Notes under the pieces: generated by a model
What the model was told of the DNA's origin: nothing
The model's database searches: none
The model's input: the letters and a program-made list of their open reading frames with translations, nothing else
Part shown: in pieces, positions 2,163 through 11,579 of the stretch
Layout: each line of letters begins with the position of its first letter
How positions within the stretch are numbered: position 1 is the first letter of the stretch
Assembly (NCBI GenBank): GCA_038139415.1
Contig: JAYOSV010000012.1
Location: 1-64,000, forward strand
Direction: 5' to 3'
Origin: Verrucomicrobiales bacterium
Lineage (GTDB): Bacteria; Verrucomicrobiota; Verrucomicrobiia; Limisphaerales; UBA1100
DNA: 64,000 bases
Position numbers and translations under genes: made by a program

Positions 2163-5100
2163 CTACTCCGCCGGAGGTGATTCCTGCCCCTCGGCCGGCG
2201 GCGCTTGTCCTTCGGACTGTTGCTGGGCTTGAGCCGTTTTAAGCTGGTCCAAAATCTGTTGGATCAGTTCATCGCTGTTCTGCGTCATTTGTTGACTGAC
2301 ATCCACCACCACTTCGCTCGGCTGCGACTCGCGCAGTTGCCCCTGTAATTCAGTGACTCTCTCCTGATAATTGCCGAACAATGCACCCACCTGTTGCAGT
2401 GCCGTCTGCAGTTGTGCGGCCTGAGCGGAGGCCTGAGATTGGTTAATCGTTTGGGCCAATTGCTGGTTGCTCTGCTGGATGAATTCCATCATGGCCTGTT
2501 GGCGGTCGGCCAACATCTGCTGATTCCCTTCCGCCACCGCAGATGCCTGACTGGATTGTTCCAGATATTTCTCAATCGCCGCGCTGATCGCTTCCATCTG
2601 ATTGGATGAAACGGGAGCCGGCGCACCCTCGACTGCCCCGGCAGTTTCCCCTCCTGCGACCGGAGCATTAGCAGAATTTTCGGCCAATGTTTGGCGAAGT
2701 TTTTCCAGGTCGGCGCTTAACGCACTGGTGTCGATGGTGGTCGTGCGGTCCTTTGAAAGTTCTTCCTTGAGTGTGTCCTGGATCGACTCAAGGCCGCCGC
2801 TGAAGAGGGACAGCTGGCTAACCACGCGGCTGACGGGGTCGTTTTGGTCGCCGCCCTGCAGATATTGGTTCCGGCCGAAGGTGCGCTTAATTTCCTCCCA
2901 ACGCTCCGCTTCCTCCTCGCTCATCACGCCGATGAGTTGCTTAAACTTGAGGAAGTTTGCTTCGGCGCCGGTGGTGAGCGTTTGACTCTCACCCTTGTAA
3001 TGATCGAGCACGAGATCCATCAACTCCTGCTCGTTCATCATCGGCAACACCTTTTCGGCGAGACGGTTCATGTTCCGGTAGGAACCCTGCATCTTGAAAG
3101 CCGGCTCCGTACGGAATTCATCGGACTGCCCGGCGCTTTCGATGTAGAGTTGGTTCACCTTCAACACCACATCGCGGAGCGTGATCATCTTCTTGATCAC
3201 TGTGATTAATTCCTCTTGTTCGTTGGCGGAGAAATTACCCTGCAATTCGATGCCCTCGCGCTGATCGGTTTCAGCCATGCGAATAAACGCCTGAATATCC
3301 TTCTGCGCCGCCTTACCAAGCGATTGCAGTGCGGGGTTCGAAGTGATTGCGTTCTCAATGTAACTGCCGGAGAAAGCAGTTTCGCGGCCTTTCATGTCGT
3401 CACCGAGGTTGTAGGTGTCTGCACGGTTGGTGAGCATGTCCGGCACACGGAATTTTTCACCGCTCTCGGTGTAGGGGTTACCAGCCATCACCACCACCAC
3501 GCGGCGACCGCGCATATCGTAGGTCTTCGGCTGGCCGCGCCACACGCCCTCGATCTTGCGCTGGGCATCACACAACGAAATAAACTTCTGTAGAAACTCC
3601 GGATTACAGTGCTGGATGTCGTCCACGTAGATCATCACGTTATCGCCCATCTCAAGCGCGAGGTTGAGCTTCTTGACCTCCTCACGTGCACCAGCATTGG
3701 GAGCCTCCTCGGGATCGAGCGAGGTTACCTCATGGCCAAGCGCCGGGCCGTTGATCTTCATGAAAATCAGTCCCATGCGGTTGGCGAGATATTCCATTAA
3801 GGTGGTCTTACCATATCCGGGAGGAGAGATGAGCAGCAGCAAACCCATGAGGTCCGTGCGCTTGGCATCGCCGGCCGCACCAATCTGCTTGGCAAGGTTA
3901 TCGCCGACAATCGGCAGATACACTTCATCCACCAACTGGTTCCGCACAAAGGATGACAAAACGCGCGGCTCAAATTCATGCAGGCGCAGTGCCTCTTTTT
4001 CAGATTCGATAAGCGCCTGTTTCAACTCCTGATACGCCTCAAAGCGCGGCACCGATTCGCGGGCAAAGCGTCCGAGCTTCTCTTGGAAAGCCAGATAATC
4101 GAACGGATAATTCCCGCCCTCTTCCACTGCATCATGCGCGCCCTGAATACCTTCCAGAACCTGCCCGGTAGCCGCCTTCACCACGGCCTGTTTGTGGAGG
4201 TGGCCGCAGAAAACCAGTCCCGCCACTTCCTCGAGATATTTATTGGCGCCATTACGGTCGAGCAGGAAGCCGCGTACCCAGTCACGAATCAGCTGATAAT
4301 GACTGTGCGGATCCTTCTGAAGCGGTTTCTGCGCCTTGGCAAAATCGCTTTCACGACCTTTCTTCACGAGATGCCGCTCAAACTCCGTGAGCAGACTGTC
4401 GGCCTCTTGGCTGACCACCCAATCGCGGCCGTTGGTGTGTTCGTAGAAGAGATATTCGCCGGCCGGATCCGCATCCTCAGGCGGGAATAAACCGGTCTCT
4501 TCAACGAACGCGGCCACCATGGCACGCAGTTCGGCCACATAATCGGCCTGAGTGGGATCGCCCGGGAAAATTTCGTTACGGGTGGCAAAGCCCTCCAGAC
4601 GGGCGAGCATCATCTTCGCGGCATCCGGATCACAAAATTTATTCCAGAACACCGCCGCACAGGCGCGCGCGCGCGGATAATACCGCGCAAGTTGAAGCGC
4701 ACTTTGAGTGCTAAGCAGTGCCGCTAAAATCTTTTCGGCGTCCTGATCATGGATACCCTTGGTATAGGCCTCCGAATAACGGTCGCCCATGAAGCCCTGC
4801 ACAACCTTCAGGCGTTCCTCGACACTCATCTCCGCCACCTCGGTCATGCGGACGATGCCCTGCTGCTCCAGCTTTTGCCACAACAGGTAGGCGAGATATT
4901 CCGCGCGGTAAACTTCATTATCCTCAGACACCACCGTTTGATCCCACACCTCGCGAGTGGCCAAGAAGGCTTCATCGGTGACTTCATCGAAATATTGCGT
5001 GCCCGTCAGATGCAGATTCTGATCATTGCCGCGTCGCACCATGGTAAGATCCAAAGGCTGTGCGTTGACGGCAAACTTATGTTTTCCGAACTGGATGACA

Positions 5101-7721
5101 TTCTGCCCATCCACATACAGCTCCTGCTTATCCTTGAGCTGGCGTACGGCCTCCTCGTGAATGCTCTTGAGCTGACTTTGGATACCCTCCGCTTCGCCGG
5201 CCTTGTCCAGCGCTTGCAGTTCTTCCACGCGTTCGCGGATCGAATCAATCATCCGATCGCCAGCCATATAGCCATTGATGTCATTGACATCCTCAAACGT
5301 CCCGAGCTTGTGTTCGATGCTCTTGAGCATGCGCTCGGCAGATGACACCAGCGCGGTGGCTTTGCGGTTTCTGGCCTCTTCCAGTTGCAGGCGTTTCTGC
5401 TCAAAAGCCGTCTCCAGCTCACTACGTTTTTGGTCGAGCTGCTCGATGTATTCCGGGAAATCCGCAAAGTCACCACCGAGATCCTCAAGTTGATTGAGGA
5501 TGTTGTTAAAGTACTCATCGCACTTCTCCGGCGAGTCGGACATGTCCAAATAATTGGTCGCCGTCTGGCTCAGCAGCAAAATCTGTGCGTTAAACTGCGC
5601 GGCTCCTTCCGCCGTCATCAGCGAGCGCATCTTGTTCTTCAGCGCTTCCTTTACCTGATTGACCACCTGATAAATCGTCGTGATCCCCTCCACGATGCGT
5701 GTCTGTTCGGTGGTATCGTCAATCGACAGACTCCGGACGATGTCGATCAACATTTCCAGATCCGAGCCCGCCGTCGTTATCTCCTCCTCCAGCTCCTTGC
5801 CCTCTGCCACCTTGGTGACACCATCCACACGCCCGCGCTGTTCCTCAGCCCGTTCACGATAGGGATCCAACGATTCGGGCTGCAGCAAAAATTCCACGCA
5901 CTTCTGTGAGAGCACATCCACCTGCTCCTTCACCTGCGCTTCCAGCGCCTCCATGGCGGCGGCATCAATGAAACGCACCTCATCCTTCAGCGTAATAATC
6001 TCGCCGCGCATCCGTCGTAACCCGCCCAGATTGGCCACAAAATCATCCACAGACTTGAAATTGGCCCGACCCACCTGGCTAAAGAGTTCCTTAGAACGCT
6101 TGGCAATATCCTCGGATCGTTCACGAGCCTCCAGCTTGAGGCGGCGTACTTTGTCGAATTCCGCAATCGCTTTCTCCGCAGTTTCTGCGACGCCCTTGAG
6201 GACTTCGATAATCTTACCACCCTCCTCGGATCCCAGCCACGTATGCGCGCTGGGAATACTACCTGCCTTGGCGGCCATGTCTGCGTACAGATCAGCATAT
6301 GGCGATTCCTTTTGGATCAGCAGCAGTACCTCATTGCACTCCGCCATCGCTTTCACCACGGCTTTGTTGCCCACCTGAAACAACAACGAATCGCGTTCGC
6401 CGCTCTCCGGTTCAAAGCCTGGTTGATAAAAGGGCGATTGGCGCACCTGAATCATGTGATGCTTGATTGCCTCTTCCTCCGCCCGAAAACTCACCAAGTC
6501 ACCATTCGGAAACAACGAAAATCCATGGCAGGCAATACGTTCGGAGATCTCCTGTTCAATCAACCGATAGGGCATCAAGGCATACAGGCCGGACATGCGA
6601 TTGAAAAAGACGTATAGATAATCTTCTCCGTTCGGCGAGGTCATGGTCCGTTCCAGCAACATGTCGCCCTCTTCGGCCTCGTAACGCTTCAGCTCGCCGC
6701 TCTGGAGATAGTAGCCATCCGGAAAGATTAGGCCATGCTCTTCGGGTAGCAGGATGCAGGATTGCCCGATCGAATCCACACGGTGAACGGATTGCAGTTT
6801 TTCGTTGAAAATAAAATACCGGGTAACCTTCTCCCGGTAGGGCGTAATTTTGATCAGGATCAACGCGCCCTGAATAGCGTACTGAATCTCAGCATCGTCC
6901 AACTTCTGGTTACGATCCTCCACCGGTTCCGAATAAATGCCTTCCCCCGTGGCTGTATTATCCTCGATCTTGATCGTGAGATCGCCGCCCACACATTCCA
7001 CAAAAACCCGATCCTGAATCGATACATGCGGATTGTCACCGTGCCGAACATCACTCGGTGTGGAGTTGACCCATTGGAAATTAAACTCCGCTGGAAACGC
7101 AGTGTTTAAGTATTCGTTGGCCGCTCGATCATTGTCATAAACCAGTTGGCCATCAGCATTAATCAGCCACTTATAGACTGTGACATCCCCCACTTTGCTG
7201 CCCGTGCGGAACACCATATAAAAGTTCGAGCCAACCTGGGCAAACCGATGAAAGCGGGCATCCTTGTTGACTGAAAACATGACGCCAAACCGTTCCTGAA
7301 ATTTAGCATCATGCAGGATGGACAGATCACCTTCCTTGAATTCCTCCGCAGCCTCGTCGTAATCGTATACGGCGAATACGTCGCTCAGCTGCCCCTGCTT
7401 GAGGCCCAGCTCAACATTGAAGCCAAAGAGGAAATGATCGTGACCCAACTGAATCATATCCCGCGGCTCACAATTGAGCTGCGTGGACACGCGGGCCATT
7501 TTCTTAAGCTCCAGTTTCTTGGAGCCAAACACCTGTGCCCGGCGCTCATCCAGTTTCCCCAGCTCCTCGCGCAGGGTAGCGCCCTGGTCGTTCAGGCGCT
7601 GCTTGATGAGATCGTATGCGCCGCCCTCCAGCGCTGTCGTTGCGCCTTCTCCGGTATTTCCACTGTCGGGAGGTTCCGCCATGGATAGAGCCCCAATTGC
7701 CCCGGCCAATGACCGGGGCAA
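2163..7721 (-). CDS. Giant (≈1840-1852 aa) coiled-coil protein with a MoxR/AAA_5-like ATPase core
   Basis: Walker A LLLISPPGYGKTTLMEYLA, Walker B NVMIYVDDIQH and a MoxR-type sensor region VVVVMAGNPYTESGEKFRVPDMLTNRAD sit in the C-terminal third. About 1200 aa of unassigned N-terminal sequence. Extensive predicted coiled coil and a Gln/Ala-rich C-terminal tail. The ORF-track start at 7721 is a TTG; an in-frame ATG at 7682 (MAEPPDSG...) is the more likely start. It lies 10-48 nt downstream of the flotillin gene on the same strand. Confidence 0.75.
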   Translation of the reverse strand: MPRSLAGAIGALSMAEPPDSGNTGEGATTALEGGAYDLIKQRLNDQGATLREELGKLDERRAQVFGSKKLELKKMARVSTQLNCEPRDMIQLGHDHFLFGFNVELGLKQGQLSDVFAVYDYDEAAEEFKEGDLSILHDAKFQERFGVMFSVNKDARFHRFAQVGSNFYMVFRTGSKVGDVTVYKWLINADGQLVYDNDRAANEYLNTAFPAEFNFQWVNSTPSDVRHGDNPHVSIQDRVFVECVGGDLTIKIEDNTATGEGIYSEPVEDRNQKLDDAEIQYAIQGALILIKITPYREKVTRYFIFNEKLQSVHRVDSIGQSCILLPEEHGLIFPDGYYLQSGELKRYEAEEGDMLLERTMTSPNGEDYLYVFFNRMSGLYALMPYRLIEQEISERIACHGFSLFPNGDLVSFRAEEEAIKHHMIQVRQSPFYQPGFEPESGERDSLLFQVGNKAVVKAMAECNEVLLLIQKESPYADLYADMAAKAGSIPSAHTWLGSEEGGKIIEVLKGVAETAEKAIAEFDKVRRLKLEARERSEDIAKRSKELFSQVGRANFKSVDDFVANLGGLRRMRGEIITLKDEVRFIDAAAMEALEAQVKEQVDVLSQKCVEFLLQPESLDPYRERAEEQRGRVDGVTKVAEGKELEEEITTAGSDLEMLIDIVRSLSIDDTTEQTRIVEGITTIYQVVNQVKEALKNKMRSLMTAEGAAQFNAQILLLSQTATNYLDMSDSPEKCDEYFNNILNQLEDLGGDFADFPEYIEQLDQKRSELETAFEQKRLQLEEARNRKATALVSSAERMLKSIEHKLGTFEDVNDINGYMAGDRMIDSIRERVEELQALDKAGEAEGIQSQLKSIHEEAVRQLKDKQELYVDGQNVIQFGKHKFAVNAQPLDLTMVRRGNDQNLHLTGTQYFDEVTDEAFLATREVWDQTVVSEDNEVYRAEYLAYLLWQKLEQQGIVRMTEVAEMSVEERLKVVQGFMGDRYSEAYTKGIHDQDAEKILAALLSTQSALQLARYYPRARACAAVFWNKFCDPDAAKMMLARLEGFATRNEIFPGDPTQADYVAELRAMVAAFVEETGLFPPEDADPAGEYLFYEHTNGRDWVVSQEADSLLTEFERHLVKKGRESDFAKAQKPLQKDPHSHYQLIRDWVRGFLLDRNGANKYLEEVAGLVFCGHLHKQAVVKAATGQVLEGIQGAHDAVEEGGNYPFDYLAFQEKLGRFARESVPRFEAYQELKQALIESEKEALRLHEFEPRVLSSFVRNQLVDEVYLPIVGDNLAKQIGAAGDAKRTDLMGLLLLISPPGYGKTTLMEYLANRMGLIFMKINGPALGHEVTSLDPEEAPNAGAREEVKKLNLALEMGDNVMIYVDDIQHCNPEFLQKFISLCDAQRKIEGVWRGQPKTYDMRGRRVVVVMAGNPYTESGEKFRVPDMLTNRADTYNLGDDMKGRETAFSGSYIENAITSNPALQSLGKAAQKDIQAFIRMAETDQREGIELQGNFSANEQEELITVIKKMITLRDVVLKVNQLYIESAGQSDEFRTEPAFKMQGSYRNMNRLAEKVLPMMNEQELMDLVLDHYKGESQTLTTGAEANFLKFKQLIGVMSEEEAERWEEIKRTFGRNQYLQGGDQNDPVSRVVSQLSLFSGGLESIQDTLKEELSKDRTTTIDTSALSADLEKLRQTLAENSANAPVAGGETAGAVEGAPAPVSSNQMEAISAAIEKYLEQSSQASAVAEGNQQMLADRQQAMMEFIQQSNQQLAQTINQSQASAQAAQLQTALQQVGALFGNYQERVTELQGQLRESQPSEVVVDVSQQMTQNSDELIQQILDQLKTAQAQQQSEGQAPPAEGQESPPAE

Positions 7722-7730
7722 TTGAGTGAA

Positions 7731-10055
7731 TTATTTGCCGAGTTTGTCGCCGAGGATCGTGCTCGCCAACTCGCTGCCAATTTCCGTGCCGCGCACAGCC
7801 TTTTCGGCCGCCCGCATTAGGCCGCGAAGCGAGTTGTCTTCGGTCTTGGATACCATGGAAGCCAACAACGCGGAGATAGTGAGATTCTTCACATCCTCAC
7901 TCTTCAGGCCAGATGCCTTGATCCAGCCGGCCAATTTATTTTTCAGATGATCCGGGTCGCCGTTGAAGAAGGTGTTCTTCACGTCAGTGATGGTCTGGCT
8001 GTTATCGACCAGGCGATCGACTACCTTACCTTGGCTCACGGAGGAGACCACACGGTTGAAGAAGTCCTGCTCGCCGCCCACCAGATCGATGTTTGCGCTC
8101 TTGAGCGCCTCGCCCAACACGCGGGCCTGAGCATCGGCAATATCCTTCTTGATATTGATATCGGCCAACTCCACATCCTTGTCCTTGTCCAATTGCAGAC
8201 GGAATTCCTCGTGGTCCTGCGAAGCCTTGTTGAACAGCTCGATAGCCTTGGCCATCTCGGTTTTGGCCAACGCCTCGGCGAGGCCCAACTTCTCGGCGCC
8301 CTGCGCCTCGGCCAGACGGATCGCTTCCACGGATTTACCCTCGGCCACACCCTTCGATTCGATGGCCACACCTTCCGCAGTGCCCTTGGCAGCGATGCCT
8401 TTCGCTTCGCCCTCGCCTTCGGCAGCCCTGGCTTTACCAGAAGCTTGGCCCTGTGCCTCAATCACGGCGGCTTCAGCTAAACCCAAGGCCTTCTCGGCAT
8501 CGGCATCGACCGTCTTAGCCTCGGCCTTGGCCTTCATCACATTGGCCTCGGCATAACCGGCAGCTGCCTGCATGGCTGCCGTTCCTTCGGCTTCCTGTTG
8601 CATGGCGTGGTTGCGTTTCTCACTCGCCTTGGCTTCCGCATCGGCAGTGATTTGAATTTGCTCGGCCGTTTGCTCGGCTTCCAGCTTGTCGGCTTCCGCC
8701 TTAGTCACATCCTCGTACTTGAGGGCATCAGCTTTCTTTTGACGTACATCATAATCGGCTTGCGCGGCAATGAGGTCGCGTTTTTGGTCCGCTTCGGCGC
8801 GGGCCTCGGCCTCGATGTTCAACACGCGGCGCGCCCGTTCGGCGCTCATGTCCGCCTCCACATCCAGTCGTTGCTGGTGCTGGGTGGTCACTTCCTTTTC
8901 CTTGGCCTCCAAACCGGCCTTGCTCTCGGCAACGCCAAACGCGGCGGCGATGATGGCCGCTTCCTTCTCTTGCGTCGATAACCCCACACGGCGTTCACGA
9001 TCGACCTCAGCTTGCTGACCGGATTCCTTTTTCTCCTCCTCAAGTCGCAGCAAATCCTTGTCCAAATTCACGCGTGCTTCCTGCACCGATCGATCCTTTT
9101 GCACCGTGCGAACTTCCACATCCTCTTCAGTGCTCAACCGGGCATTCTCGGATTCTTTCCGTGCCTCCTGAACGCTCTTTTCAGTTATGGCAGACTCTTC
9201 CGCCTTGGTCACCTCCACCTCACGAGTTTGTGCAGCCAAGTGCTGCTCGTTTGTCCGATCCAATTCGCGCTGAGCAACCTCTGTCTCAATATCCTTGTTC
9301 TTGATCTGCAGCTCCATGTTCCGGTTCTGCTCATTGATTGTCTCTTGCTTGGCGGTATTCTGCTTGTTGATCTCTTCGTCCCTTTGAACTTTGCGCTGGT
9401 TCTCTTTCTCCTCCATTTGAGCAGTCAACTCCACAATCTTTGCCCGACCTACGGAGTCCAGCACGTTATTGGGGTCATGAGCATCCAATGGGGTTTGCTC
9501 GAGGTAATCAATCGCCACGTCCTCCAGCGTATAACCGTTTAGATCGCTGCCAATCGTATCGATGATCTCCTGACGGAACGGAATACGATCGGTGTACAGC
9601 TTCTCGAACTGCATCTTCTTACCGGCCGACTTGAGTGCCTCGGAGAACTTCGCCTCAAACAACTGCTTGAGCAGCTCAATTTCCGATGCCCGCTCGCAAC
9701 CCACCTGTGTCGCAACGGTTTTGATATCGTGAAAATCAGCTTTTTTCTGGCCATCTATCTTGGTCTTCTCGTCATTCACGCGCACGTAAAAGACCACTTC
9801 AATATCCGCGCGAATGTTATCCTCACAAATCAACCCGTCCTTACCTTTACGGACAACCTCCAACTTTTTCACAGAGAGATCCATGATCTGCAACTGCTGA
9901 AGAATCGGAATACGCAGCATCCAGTCTTTCTTAACCATGATACCACCGAAACCAGTTCGCACGCCGGCCTCACCCGGCTTGATTTTCTTAATAAATAGAA
10001 ACAGACTGATCACGGTGAAAAACAACAAACCAGCGATAATAAGGGCAGGGATCAT
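7731..10055 (-). CDS. Flotillin-family SPFH/band-7 membrane protein (YqiK/FloT-like), unusually long (774 aa)
   Basis: N-terminal TM helix (IIAGLLFFTVISLFLFI). SPFH domain. Long Ala/Glu/Lys-rich coiled coil with EA repeats. Flotillin-type C-terminal region. ATG at 10055 preceded by a strong SD (taggagtattaatATG). Confidence 0.85.
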   Translation of the reverse strand: MIPALIIAGLLFFTVISLFLFIKKIKPGEAGVRTGFGGIMVKKDWMLRIPILQQLQIMDLSVKKLEVVRKGKDGLICEDNIRADIEVVFYVRVNDEKTKIDGQKKADFHDIKTVATQVGCERASEIELLKQLFEAKFSEALKSAGKKMQFEKLYTDRIPFRQEIIDTIGSDLNGYTLEDVAIDYLEQTPLDAHDPNNVLDSVGRAKIVELTAQMEEKENQRKVQRDEEINKQNTAKQETINEQNRNMELQIKNKDIETEVAQRELDRTNEQHLAAQTREVEVTKAEESAITEKSVQEARKESENARLSTEEDVEVRTVQKDRSVQEARVNLDKDLLRLEEEKKESGQQAEVDRERRVGLSTQEKEAAIIAAAFGVAESKAGLEAKEKEVTTQHQQRLDVEADMSAERARRVLNIEAEARAEADQKRDLIAAQADYDVRQKKADALKYEDVTKAEADKLEAEQTAEQIQITADAEAKASEKRNHAMQQEAEGTAAMQAAAGYAEANVMKAKAEAKTVDADAEKALGLAEAAVIEAQGQASGKARAAEGEGEAKGIAAKGTAEGVAIESKGVAEGKSVEAIRLAEAQGAEKLGLAEALAKTEMAKAIELFNKASQDHEEFRLQLDKDKDVELADINIKKDIADAQARVLGEALKSANIDLVGGEQDFFNRVVSSVSQGKVVDRLVDNSQTITDVKNTFFNGDPDHLKNKLAGWIKASGLKSEDVKNLTISALLASMVSKTEDNSLRGLMRAAEKAVRGTEIGSELASTILGDKLGK

Positions 10056-10253
10056 ATTAATACTCCTATAGGATATAGTTTAAATCTACACACCAAAACA
10101 CAGGACACCATACGTTGGGGATACTCCGTCCGTCAGGACAGAAAGTGGTGTCATGCGTGGACTATAATCCATTGTGCTCGAAGGGCGCTACTATAATCTT
10201 TGGGAAAGTTTATAATGGGCGAATCGACTTTAGTTTTTTTACGGTTAGCAAAA
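10056..10253. promoter_or_regulatory. Divergent promoter region (flotillin operon leftward; thioredoxin–PDZ gene rightward) with three TATAAT hexamers
   Basis: AT-rich 200-bp intergenic region. TATAAT at 10164-10169, 10193-10198 and 10211-10216. The first two sit in a near-repeat gaCTATAATCc / taCTATAATCt. Confidence 0.3.
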
Positions 10254-11579
10254 ATGAGGCCCTTACCGTACGCTTTCCCCGTGAAATACACTCTCATTCT
10301 CTACGGACTTTGCCTGTCGCTATCCGTCCCGGCAGCCGTGCCCTCCTTACTGGATCGATTAGAGGATGAAAATGCCCGCGGCCAAAACCAATGGATTTAC
10401 AACGACCTTCAGCAGGCTATGGCCAAGGCCCGGAGCACAGGAAAGCCGATCTTTGTCACCTTCCGCTGTGTCCCTTGCAAAGCGTGCAAAGCGTTTGATG
10501 CCGAGGTGGCTAAGGGCAATAATGTGATCCGCGACCTGGCCGGGAAACATTTTATCACCCTACGCCAGGTGGAGATGAAGGGCGTGGATCTCAGTTTGTT
10601 TCAGTTTGATTACGACCTAAACTGGGCCGGTATGTTTATTAACGCCGACGGCGTGGTGTACGCACGCTATGGCACCCAGAGCACCGATGGCCCAGACGCC
10701 TACAATTCCATCGCCGGCCTCAAGAACACCATGGACCGCGTGCTCAAACTGCACGCCGCCTATCCGACCAACAAAGTGCAACTGGCCGGCAAACGCGGCG
10801 CGCCCAAGCCCTATAAGACCGCCATGGAAATGCCCGGCCTCGAAAACAAACAGGCATTCCGGCAAACTACCCATCGCAACAACTGTATTCATTGCCACAA
10901 CATCCATGATGCCGAGAACCACAAACTCCATCTCGAAGGCAAGCTAACTAGGGACAAACTGTGGCGCTATCCCCTACCGGAAAATGTCGGCCTGAATATT
11001 GACGCCGTGGACGGCCAACGCATTGCCAAGGTGTTGAGCGGCAGTGCAGCAGACCGCGCCGGGCTGAAGGCCGGCCAACGCATCACCCACGCCAACGGCC
11101 AACCCATCACCTCCATCGCCGATATCCAATGGGTGCTGCACAACCTCAGTAATAGTAAGGAGACGATCCGGTTCACGGTCGCCGGCAGCAGCCGCGCCCT
11201 TGTGGTGCAAACAGACACTGACTGGAAGAAAACCGATATCTCCTGGCGCGGTTCATTGTGGGCCTTGCATCCACGGATTCGGGTGTATTTCCCTGAAGCT
11301 ACCGCCAATGATCGCCGTCAGCTCAAACTCCCTGCCAACCGCGGCGCGCTCAAGGTGAAATGGATTAATACCGGCAGCAAGGAAGGCCGTGCCGCGCACA
11401 ACGCCGGTCTTCGCCTGAACGATTACGTGATTGGCATCGCCGGCAAACCGTTTGATCCCACCATCAATCATCGCAAATTCAACCTGCACGTGAAGATGAA
11501 TTACAAGTCCGGCCAGAAGCTGCCGCTGGATTTAATTCGGAACGGTCGCAAAATGCGGCTGGATTTACCGCTGCAATAG
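10254..11579 (+). CDS. Secreted thioredoxin-like (CxxC) protein with PDZ domain(s)
   Basis: Signal peptide MRPLPYAFPVKYTLILYGLCLSLSVPAAV. Thioredoxin-fold motif FVTFRCVPCKAC. PDZ-like regions (GLNIDAVDGQRIAKVLSGSAADRAGLKAGQRI; GALKVKWINTGSKEGRAAHNAGLRLNDYVIGIAG). The start is chosen at the ATG at 10254 rather than the track's TTG at 10200. Confidence 0.7.
   Translation: MRPLPYAFPVKYTLILYGLCLSLSVPAAVPSLLDRLEDENARGQNQWIYNDLQQAMAKARSTGKPIFVTFRCVPCKACKAFDAEVAKGNNVIRDLAGKHFITLRQVEMKGVDLSLFQFDYDLNWAGMFINADGVVYARYGTQSTDGPDAYNSIAGLKNTMDRVLKLHAAYPTNKVQLAGKRGAPKPYKTAMEMPGLENKQAFRQTTHRNNCIHCHNIHDAENHKLHLEGKLTRDKLWRYPLPENVGLNIDAVDGQRIAKVLSGSAADRAGLKAGQRITHANGQPITSIADIQWVLHNLSNSKETIRFTVAGSSRALVVQTDTDWKKTDISWRGSLWALHPRIRVYFPEATANDRRQLKLPANRGALKVKWINTGSKEGRAAHNAGLRLNDYVIGIAGKPFDPTINHRKFNLHVKMNYKSGQKLPLDLIRNGRKMRLDLPLQ

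Follow-up and report, generated by a model that had tools for sequence, protein, structure and literature searches.

A highly conserved AAA+ ATPase encoded nearly always directly after a flotillin gene is an obvious candidate for the motor by which bacteria might build SPFH/flotillin scaffolds, set their size or dismantle them. Two such genes lie side by side in a 64-kb stretch of contig JAYOSV010000012.1 (positions 1 to 64,000; hereafter the window) from a Verrucomicrobiales bacterium. One codes for a YqiK-type flotillin of 774 amino acids (aa) and occupies positions 7731–10055, as judged from its open reading frame (ORF) and homology; the other, at 2163–7682, codes for a giant DUF3686-family AAA+ ATPase of 1839 aa, counted from the ATG at 7682 and recognised from its ORF and its Pfam matches. 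Both are on the minus strand. The pair had been picked out in an earlier sequence-only reading, and it raises the question of whether a flotillin and so large an ATPase form a system of their own, and of what this system might do. The locus belongs to a widespread and conserved cytoplasmic-membrane module, which unites a flotillin with a giant AAA+ ATPase, mostly together with YqiJ. The window holds a reduced variant of this module, where YqiJ is absent and a clade-specific soluble accessory gene and a PLD gene stand beside the pair.

The existence of such a module is seen in gene order. The best 80 loci from species genomes were compared together with two metagenome loci (82 in all, designated below by L numbers), and co-occurrence was counted in the 67 loci with at least 2.5 kb of sequence upstream of the ATPase gene. 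In 65 of these 67, the ATPase gene is directly preceded by that of a flotillin homologue on the same strand; a share of more than 50% had been named in the sequence-only reading as the sign of a conserved system. Since this arrangement recurs through many phyla, the pair is indeed a conserved system. A partial flotillin is also found at the contig end in eight of the 15 truncated loci. Carriers among the 82 loci are Verrucomicrobiota, Planctomycetota, Bacteroidota, Desulfobacterota, Clostridia and Lentisphaeria, and annotated records add Gammaproteobacteria and Actinomycetota: in plasmid pQBR103 of Pseudomonas fluorescens and in a Streptomyces linear plasmid, genes for a hypothetical protein, an SPFH/flotillin protein and a “DNA repair ATPase” follow one another in this order. 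The distance matrices of flotillin and ATPase are correlated, with a Mantel r of 0.75 that was reached by none of 2000 permutations. The module is patchily distributed and resides on some megaplasmids. A phage origin was rejected, since tblastn found no match in 50,697 phage records.

The gap between the flotillin and ATPase genes does not exceed 150 nt in 38 of 73 loci. In many Bacteroidota loci, unrelated small genes of the same strand lie between the two, and this part of the operon has the look of an insertion hotspot. Inserts were observed at L015:8609–9695, L032:6992–8158, L073:7835–9735, L050:8516–9940, L033:9392–9949, L036:9530–9952, L021:5662–6186 and L002:7176–7628. They include a DMP19-like protein, a DUF3997 protein, a lipoprotein, IS200-type Y1 transposases and a set of homologous ORFs of about 140–185 aa, whose DUF559-type endonuclease look was judged by eye only. 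In two further loci, one of the core genes is split into two ORFs, through decay or assembly errors, namely the ATPase gene of L041 (9923–15238) and the flotillin gene of L026 (7328–9414).

By its sequence, the large protein is a member of a family combining DUF3686, DUF7902 and an AAA+ module. The Pfam match to DUF3686 (PF12458) has an E-value of 2.3e-154 and spans profile positions 2–443 of 448, and that to DUF7902 has an E-value of 4e-21. About 1200 residues of the N-terminal part had been described as unassigned in the sequence-only reading; approximately 520 of them are covered by these two families. From Pfam and an AlphaFold2 (AF2) model, the DUF3686 region (6255–7574, minus strand) is predicted to comprise a helix at its N-terminal end and, after it, a propeller-like domain rich in beta-structure. 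DUF7902 (5625–5873, minus strand, from Pfam) falls within a long helical region (model aa 433–714). The AAA+ module, as delimited by its motifs and by alignment, occupies 2808–4037 and is followed by a Gln/Ala-rich helical C-terminal tail (2163–2807), both on the minus strand. The AF2 model of aa 1–720, with a mean predicted local distance difference test score of 77, shows the N-terminal helix, the beta-rich domain at 58–415 and helical bundles at 433–714. The top Foldseek matches of this N-terminal model are mostly proteins containing a beta-propeller, including prolyl oligopeptidase and the clathrin terminal domain, with a best E-value of 1.8e-5 and low TM-scores. The C-terminal tail appears to be lineage-variable, since most tblastn matches in Bacteroidota and Clostridia stop near query residue 1640. 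No transmembrane segment or signal peptide was found in the ATPase, and Pfam detected no protease, other effector, DNA-binding or nuclease domain in it. The family is large, with 614 clusters at 50% identity among 1.84 billion representatives; it is encoded in at least 588 species genomes, and the full-length members listed have about 1,600–2,000 aa.

The AAA+ module is unusually well conserved. The three motifs named in the sequence-only reading are present exactly as given, all on the minus strand: SPPGYGKTT (Walker A, 3801–3827), VDDIQH (Walker B, 3609–3626) and VVVVMAGNP (3474–3500), the last of which includes a sensor-1-like AGNP. A candidate arginine finger, NRAD (3417–3428), and a candidate sensor-2 motif, GSYR (within 3063–3089), were located by motif on the same strand. 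Across phyla, the alignment of the AAA+ module has a mean column identity of 73%, and Walker A and the DD Walker B are invariant in the two alignments, of 21 and of 25 diverse members, which argues for strong purifying selection on the module. All aligned family members have DD, and not DE, in Walker B.

Assigning this core to an AAA+ clade failed, as the PDB, hhalign and Foldseek matches are to generic AAA+ proteins only. Profile matches in the PDB (p97, Rix7, NSF and RuvB) are confined to Walker A. In hhalign, the module is related to RuvB with a probability of 96% over no more than the 74 columns from Walker A to Walker B, and to FtsH with 92%, limited to 36 Walker A columns. Foldseek searches with a model of aa 700–1700 gave weak and mixed matches (Skd3, NorQ, RuvB, dynein and RFC). 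The MoxR/midasin-like character proposed in the sequence-only reading was not confirmed by these comparisons. That the protein would be a MoxR/AAA_5-type chaperone ATPase, comparable to RavA in the RavA–ViaA system, draws on a shared AAA+ P-loop core, on a weak Pfam AAA_5 match (positions 2–126 of 139, 27.1 bits for a cut-off of 22) and on the presence of NorQ among the weak Foldseek matches; the sensor-1 region, NP-x-TE-x-G-x-x-F-x-x-P, also seems to resemble the MoxR motif. However, the scores of AAA, AAA_22 and RuvB_N are about equal to that of AAA_5, the hhalign probability with E. coli RavA is only 21%, and none of the 60 PDB profile matches listed is a MoxR-family chain. No VWA partner is found among the window neighbours or the conserved neighbour clusters, and E. 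coli RavA, with 498 aa, is only about a quarter as long as this protein of 1839 aa. Membership of the MoxR family is therefore very unlikely.

The name given by NCBI to relatives of the ATPase, “DNA repair ATPase”, points in yet another direction. A role in DNA repair would follow from the database names only (“DNA repair ATPase”, “ATPase involved in DNA repair”) and from the P-loop-level similarity to RuvB, which is weak and is restricted to the 74 columns mentioned above. The conserved partners are, on the contrary, membrane proteins, no DNA-binding or nuclease domain was detected, and literature searches returned nothing on DUF3686 or PF12458, nor on “DNA repair ATPase” with flotillin or YqiJ/YqiK with an ATPase. 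Such a role is hardly tenable, and the annotation, for which no support was found, is probably misleading.

The partner encoded upstream, a protein of 774 aa, is on sequence grounds a divergent YqiK-type flotillin. The transmembrane helix, the SPFH domain and the Ala/Glu coiled coil ascribed to it in the sequence-only reading were all recovered, the SPFH domain only through homology to YqiK. A hydrophobic anchor at aa 2–22 (9990–10052) is followed by KKIK and aligns with the N-terminus of E. coli YqiK; by the positive-inside rule, this KKIK after the helix would place the body of the protein in the cytoplasm. The SPFH-homologous region extends over aa 1–338 (9042–10055, minus strand), with 28% identity to E. 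coli YqiK in BLASTP (E = 4e-27), and the hhalign comparison of the family profile with YqiK gives a probability of 100% (E = 3e-41). PF01145 is found in homologues that are 56–58% identical to the window flotillin, and NCBI and JGI call these flotillin or YqiK. The window protein itself matched nothing of use when compared with Pfam, NCBIfam, PADLOC and PHROGs or, by sequence, with the PDB, and only two of 29 family members reach Pfam Band_7 (PF01145), the window protein not being one of them. An Ala/Glu-rich coiled coil, at about aa 210–600, aligns with that of YqiK, and the only match of the family profile in the PDB is to the QmcA coiled coil (8z5g).

Beyond the coiled coil lies a C-terminal module, aa 601–735 (7851–8255, minus strand), whose mean conservation (0.71) compares with that of the SPFH domain (0.72). 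The C-terminus of E. coli YqiK bears no relation to this module (hhalign probability 0.3%), which the pQBR103 homologue also possesses. From this pattern of conservation, the module is the best candidate for an ATPase-docking site.

Flotillin genes are known with a partner of another kind, and the sequence-only reading had underlined that no NfeD-family gene is found here. This is right for the window and wrong for the system: a YqiJ homologue (about 220 aa, with several transmembrane segments) is encoded directly upstream of the flotillin gene in 54 of the 82 loci. The family of these neighbours matches E. coli YqiJ in hhalign (95.7%, E = 9e-9), gives weak Pfam YqiJ_N and NfeD matches, and is itself matched at 99.7% by the protein in the corresponding position on pQBR103. 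A hidden Markov model (HMM) built from 50 YqiJ-like neighbours detected no YqiJ/NfeD-like ORF in the whole window, and the YqiJ-like HMM likewise detected none in the Limisphaerales clade to which the window belongs (L001–L007, L024). As YqiJ occurs in the majority of loci and is missing only from this clade and a few others, the lack of an NfeD partner is a lineage-specific loss.

In 15–17 Bacteroidota loci, the YqiJ gene is itself preceded by genes for PspA, a CesT_Tir_1 protein and a divergent XRE-type regulator; the window contains none of these three. On pQBR103 (L087, 87079–106296), the triad comes directly after DUF2491, DUF350, DUF1190 and glutathionylspermidine-synthase genes, which correspond to the PspA-associated polyamine cluster as described by Ravi et al. 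(PMC11237479). These neighbours bring in another explanation, in which the flotillin would be a platform and the ATPase would act on clients, such as PspA/ESCRT-III-like polymers or damaged membrane proteins, in the manner of FtsH–HflK/C without the protease. The co-operonic PspA and CesT genes and the pQBR103 polyamine cluster speak in its favour, together with the SPFH cages known to enclose AAA+ proteases (PMC13220708, PMC12005517) and with the propeller-like domain, a type that often serves to bind peptides and for which the top Foldseek matches include prolyl oligopeptidase and the clathrin terminal domain. Yet the flotillin is a near-universal partner (65/67), whereas PspA is found in a minority of loci (17/82); HMMs made from the Bacteroidota neighbours detected neither PspA nor CesT within the 64 kb of the window, and the ATPase shows no detectable protease or effector domain. 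A machine of this sort, directed at clients, is thus rather doubtful.

On the other side of the pair, a gene of the plus strand, convergent to the ATPase gene (1246–2100, 284 aa), is identified as a clade-specific accessory gene by its conserved adjacency. In the Limisphaerales clade that lacks YqiJ, such a gene (about 265–300 aa) adjoins the ATPase stop codon in nine of nine related loci. It is on the same strand as the ATPase gene in L001 (13540–14334), L002 (13644–14453), L005 (15445–16356), L006 (14904–15513), L007 (15629–16492) and L024 (9362–10207), its start overlapping the ATPase stop codon in L005 and L006, and is inverted in the window, L003 and L004. In the protein, an N-terminal domain of about 170 aa is followed by a disordered tail rich in Ser, Pro and Glu, and a short motif is conserved at the C-terminus; no similarity to Pfam families, PDB entries or YqiJ was found. 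The possibility that it might be a divergent NfeD/YqiJ protein was considered and rejected (hhalign probability 0.04%, no PDB relative).

Next to it, at 352–1056 on the minus strand, lies the gene of a PLD-family protein with a single HKD motif, of the Zucchini/MitoPLD/Nuc-like type (Pfam PLDc_2, 1e-30), closest in the PDB to mitochondrial cardiolipin hydrolase (MitoPLD/Zucchini; 9lkx, 8e-28) and to Nuc (1byr, 1e-10). One convergent gene separates it from the ATPase gene. A PLD gene occurs near the system in five of the 82 loci; it recurs in L003, L004, L025 (beside PspA) and L073 (beside the regulator), and a PLD-family gene also lies about 8.6 kb downstream of the pQBR103 triad. It is possible that PLD is a peripheral component of the module.

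An anti-phage or conflict system is another reading, in which scaffold and ATPase would sense infection and a PLD nuclease would be the effector. The Nuc/Zucchini-like protein indeed has a domain-level PADLOC match to DrmC (5e-12), and the patchy distribution with some megaplasmid copies, the XRE-type regulator of the Bacteroidota loci and the variable small genes between the two core genes in Bacteroidota would all be in keeping with defence. In contrast, PADLOC models do not match the flotillin and match the ATPase only through mad8, with an E-value of 0.022 over the P-loop. No copy was seen in the phage records, 73% identity of the AAA+ module across phyla is unusual for arms-race genes, and PLD accompanies few of the loci. 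The GC content is even across the region and the neighbouring genes look like housekeeping genes, which does not point to defence either. A conflict system is thus unlikely.

The architecture, which the sequence-only reading could not match to any described system, has in fact been described. Ravi et al. (2024; PMC11237479) report, in their account of it, an operon of a flotillin, YqiJ/YuaF and a novel AAA+ ATPase with coiled-coil and beta-propeller regions, often joined to CesT/Tir-PspA and, in some Proteobacteria, to PLD; abbreviated operons lacking PspA are said there to be more widely distributed. A part in sub-membrane dynamics and in the chaperone-like assembly of membrane-linked complexes was proposed in the same paper, a comparative genomics study without functional tests. 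The window, with its flotillin and giant AAA+ ATPase genes in succession on one strand and PLD nearby, fits the abbreviated operons without PspA–CesT of that account. It differs from them by the lack of the YqiJ/YuaF protein with three transmembrane segments and by its soluble accessory gene of about 280 aa, which goes unmentioned in the operon section of PMC11237479. The system is therefore already described computationally and, as far as the literature found goes, experimentally uncharacterised. A survey of SPFH proteins in P. aeruginosa (PMC13086221) mentions no ATPase, and none of the papers listed on SPFH proteins mentions pQBR103.

Comparison with better known systems helps to place the module. 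E. coli yqiJ-yqiK and B. subtilis yuaF-floT are similar in that the flotillin is homologous to YqiK over the transmembrane and SPFH regions and that a YqiJ homologue is encoded upstream in most related loci. In contrast, no giant ATPase is found beside yqiK in E. coli, the ATPase-linked flotillins carry a C-terminal module unlike that of YqiK, and the window has no YqiJ. FtsH–HflK/C, too, is an inner-membrane system in which an SPFH scaffold and an AAA+ machine are functionally coupled. There, the protease FtsH is anchored in the membrane and HflK/C are exposed to the periplasm, whereas the window ATPase has neither transmembrane segment nor protease domain and the body of the flotillin is predicted to be cytoplasmic. 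Vps4, which acts on ESCRT-III polymers in archaea and eukaryotes, offers a working analogy only: a soluble AAA+ ring that recognises its substrate, a membrane-bound polymer encoded next to it, through an N-terminal domain and remodels it. Apart from the AAA+ fold, the sequences were not found to be related and no MIT domain was detected, and the substrate proposed here is an SPFH protein, not ESCRT-III. A 2025 review considers that a Vps4-like ATPase appears to be absent in bacteria (PMC7619361).

The best explanation of these observations as a whole, to which we would give about an even chance, is a module whose ATPase remodels or recycles the flotillin scaffold at the expense of ATP, this role being inferred. 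The flotillin would be anchored by its single transmembrane helix in an N-out/C-in orientation, with its body in the cytoplasm, and would oligomerise, as other SPFH proteins do, to form a cage or a microdomain scaffold on the inner side of the membrane; flotillins are reported to form membrane-attached cages (PMC11260169). The soluble ATPase would assemble into an AAA+ ring and may dock, via its N-terminal propeller-like and helical region, onto the C-terminal module of the flotillin. Alternatively, docking could be mediated by an adaptor, such as YqiJ or the C-terminal motif of the accessory protein. When the membrane is maintained or under stress, the ATPase would then spend ATP on remodelling, taking apart or recycling the scaffold or what it contains, in functional analogy to the action of Vps4 on ESCRT-III polymers. 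A membrane-maintenance role is favoured because the AAA+ module is extremely conserved and because of the linkage with PspA. A more precise version is put forward tentatively and is possible rather than probable: the DUF3686 ATPase would be the dedicated assembly/disassembly motor of flotillin scaffolds, its propeller-like domain recognising the flotillin C-terminal module or C-terminal motifs of adaptors, and in the clade of the window a soluble adaptor would have replaced YqiJ.

Several points weigh against the remodelling proposal. No experimental characterisation was found in the literature for any member of the module. The DD in place of DE in Walker B suggests that ATP hydrolysis may be slow or regulatory. 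In the AF2 model of aa 700–1700 the AAA+ core is predicted with low confidence, which makes ring formation putative and any AAA+ clade tentative. The docking interface is deduced from sequence conservation only, and the common history of the species may account for part of the Mantel correlation. As PspA occurs in only 17 of the 82 loci and is missing from the window, the link with envelope stress is indirect for this locus. In L019 and L040, finally, the ATPase is encoded without an adjacent flotillin. The genes upstream of the ATPase gene code for a STAND-type NTPase and a TPR protein in L019 (4369–7014), and for a solute-binding protein, Uma2 and a TonB_C protein in L040 (2291–7471).

As regards the layout of the window locus, the sequence-only reading had placed the two ORFs 10–48 nt apart on the same strand, which was confirmed. 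The longest form of the ATPase ORF has 1852 aa and begins at an alternative TTG at 7721 (2163–7721, minus strand). A homologue, P0001, is 99% identical to the window ATPase and has 1839 aa; this length fits a start at ATG 7682 and thus a gap of 48 nt after the flotillin stop codon. Most of this gap, from the flotillin stop to the ATPase ATG, is taken up by a stem-loop with a 16-bp stem, found by folding (7692–7726, minus strand; −31.5 kcal/mol, z = −5.1), which includes a purine run, GGGG, 9–12 nt 5′ of the ATG. The corresponding gap of L004 has another sequence and pairs too, and 15 of 29 related short flotillin–ATPase gaps fold with z ≤ −3. The stem-loop is present in a single copy in the window, and its identification as a repeated REP-like element was therefore rejected. 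Judging from its position, it may shield the upstream transcript or reduce translation of the ATPase relative to the flotillin, and in the mechanism outlined above the latter effect would be the probable one.

The strong Shine–Dalgarno sequence noticed upstream of the flotillin gene is present, as GGAG at 10063–10066 with a 7-nt spacer to the ATG. It lies in an intergenic region of 144 nt (10056–10199), where a promoter is presumed only: the divergent promoter claimed at 10056–10253 found no counterpart, since no sigma-70-like match occurs there on the minus strand, and what remains of it is this gap. The divergent neighbour beyond it, on the plus strand (10200–11579), codes for a thioredoxin-like protein with a PDZ domain, which was not seen as a conserved neighbour among the related loci. 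At the other end, where the ATPase and accessory genes converge, folding supports the intrinsic terminator described at 2115–2148, with a 7-bp GC stem, an A-run on one side and a T-run on the other. It is bidirectional, as both strands fold well (z = −5.3 and −6.3), and it was missed by a simple consensus terminator scan.

What is new from the window is only the reduced variant, without YqiJ and with an accessory gene and a nearby PLD gene, and the interest lies in the system as a whole. The question it raises is directly testable, as cultured carriers are available in Hymenobacter, Aquimarina, Leeuwenhoekiella, Rubritalea, Pseudomonas with plasmid pQBR103, and Streptomyces. If the proposed role is true, Vps4 would have its bacterial counterpart in this ATPase, which would be the first machine to drive the turnover of an SPFH cage with ATP.

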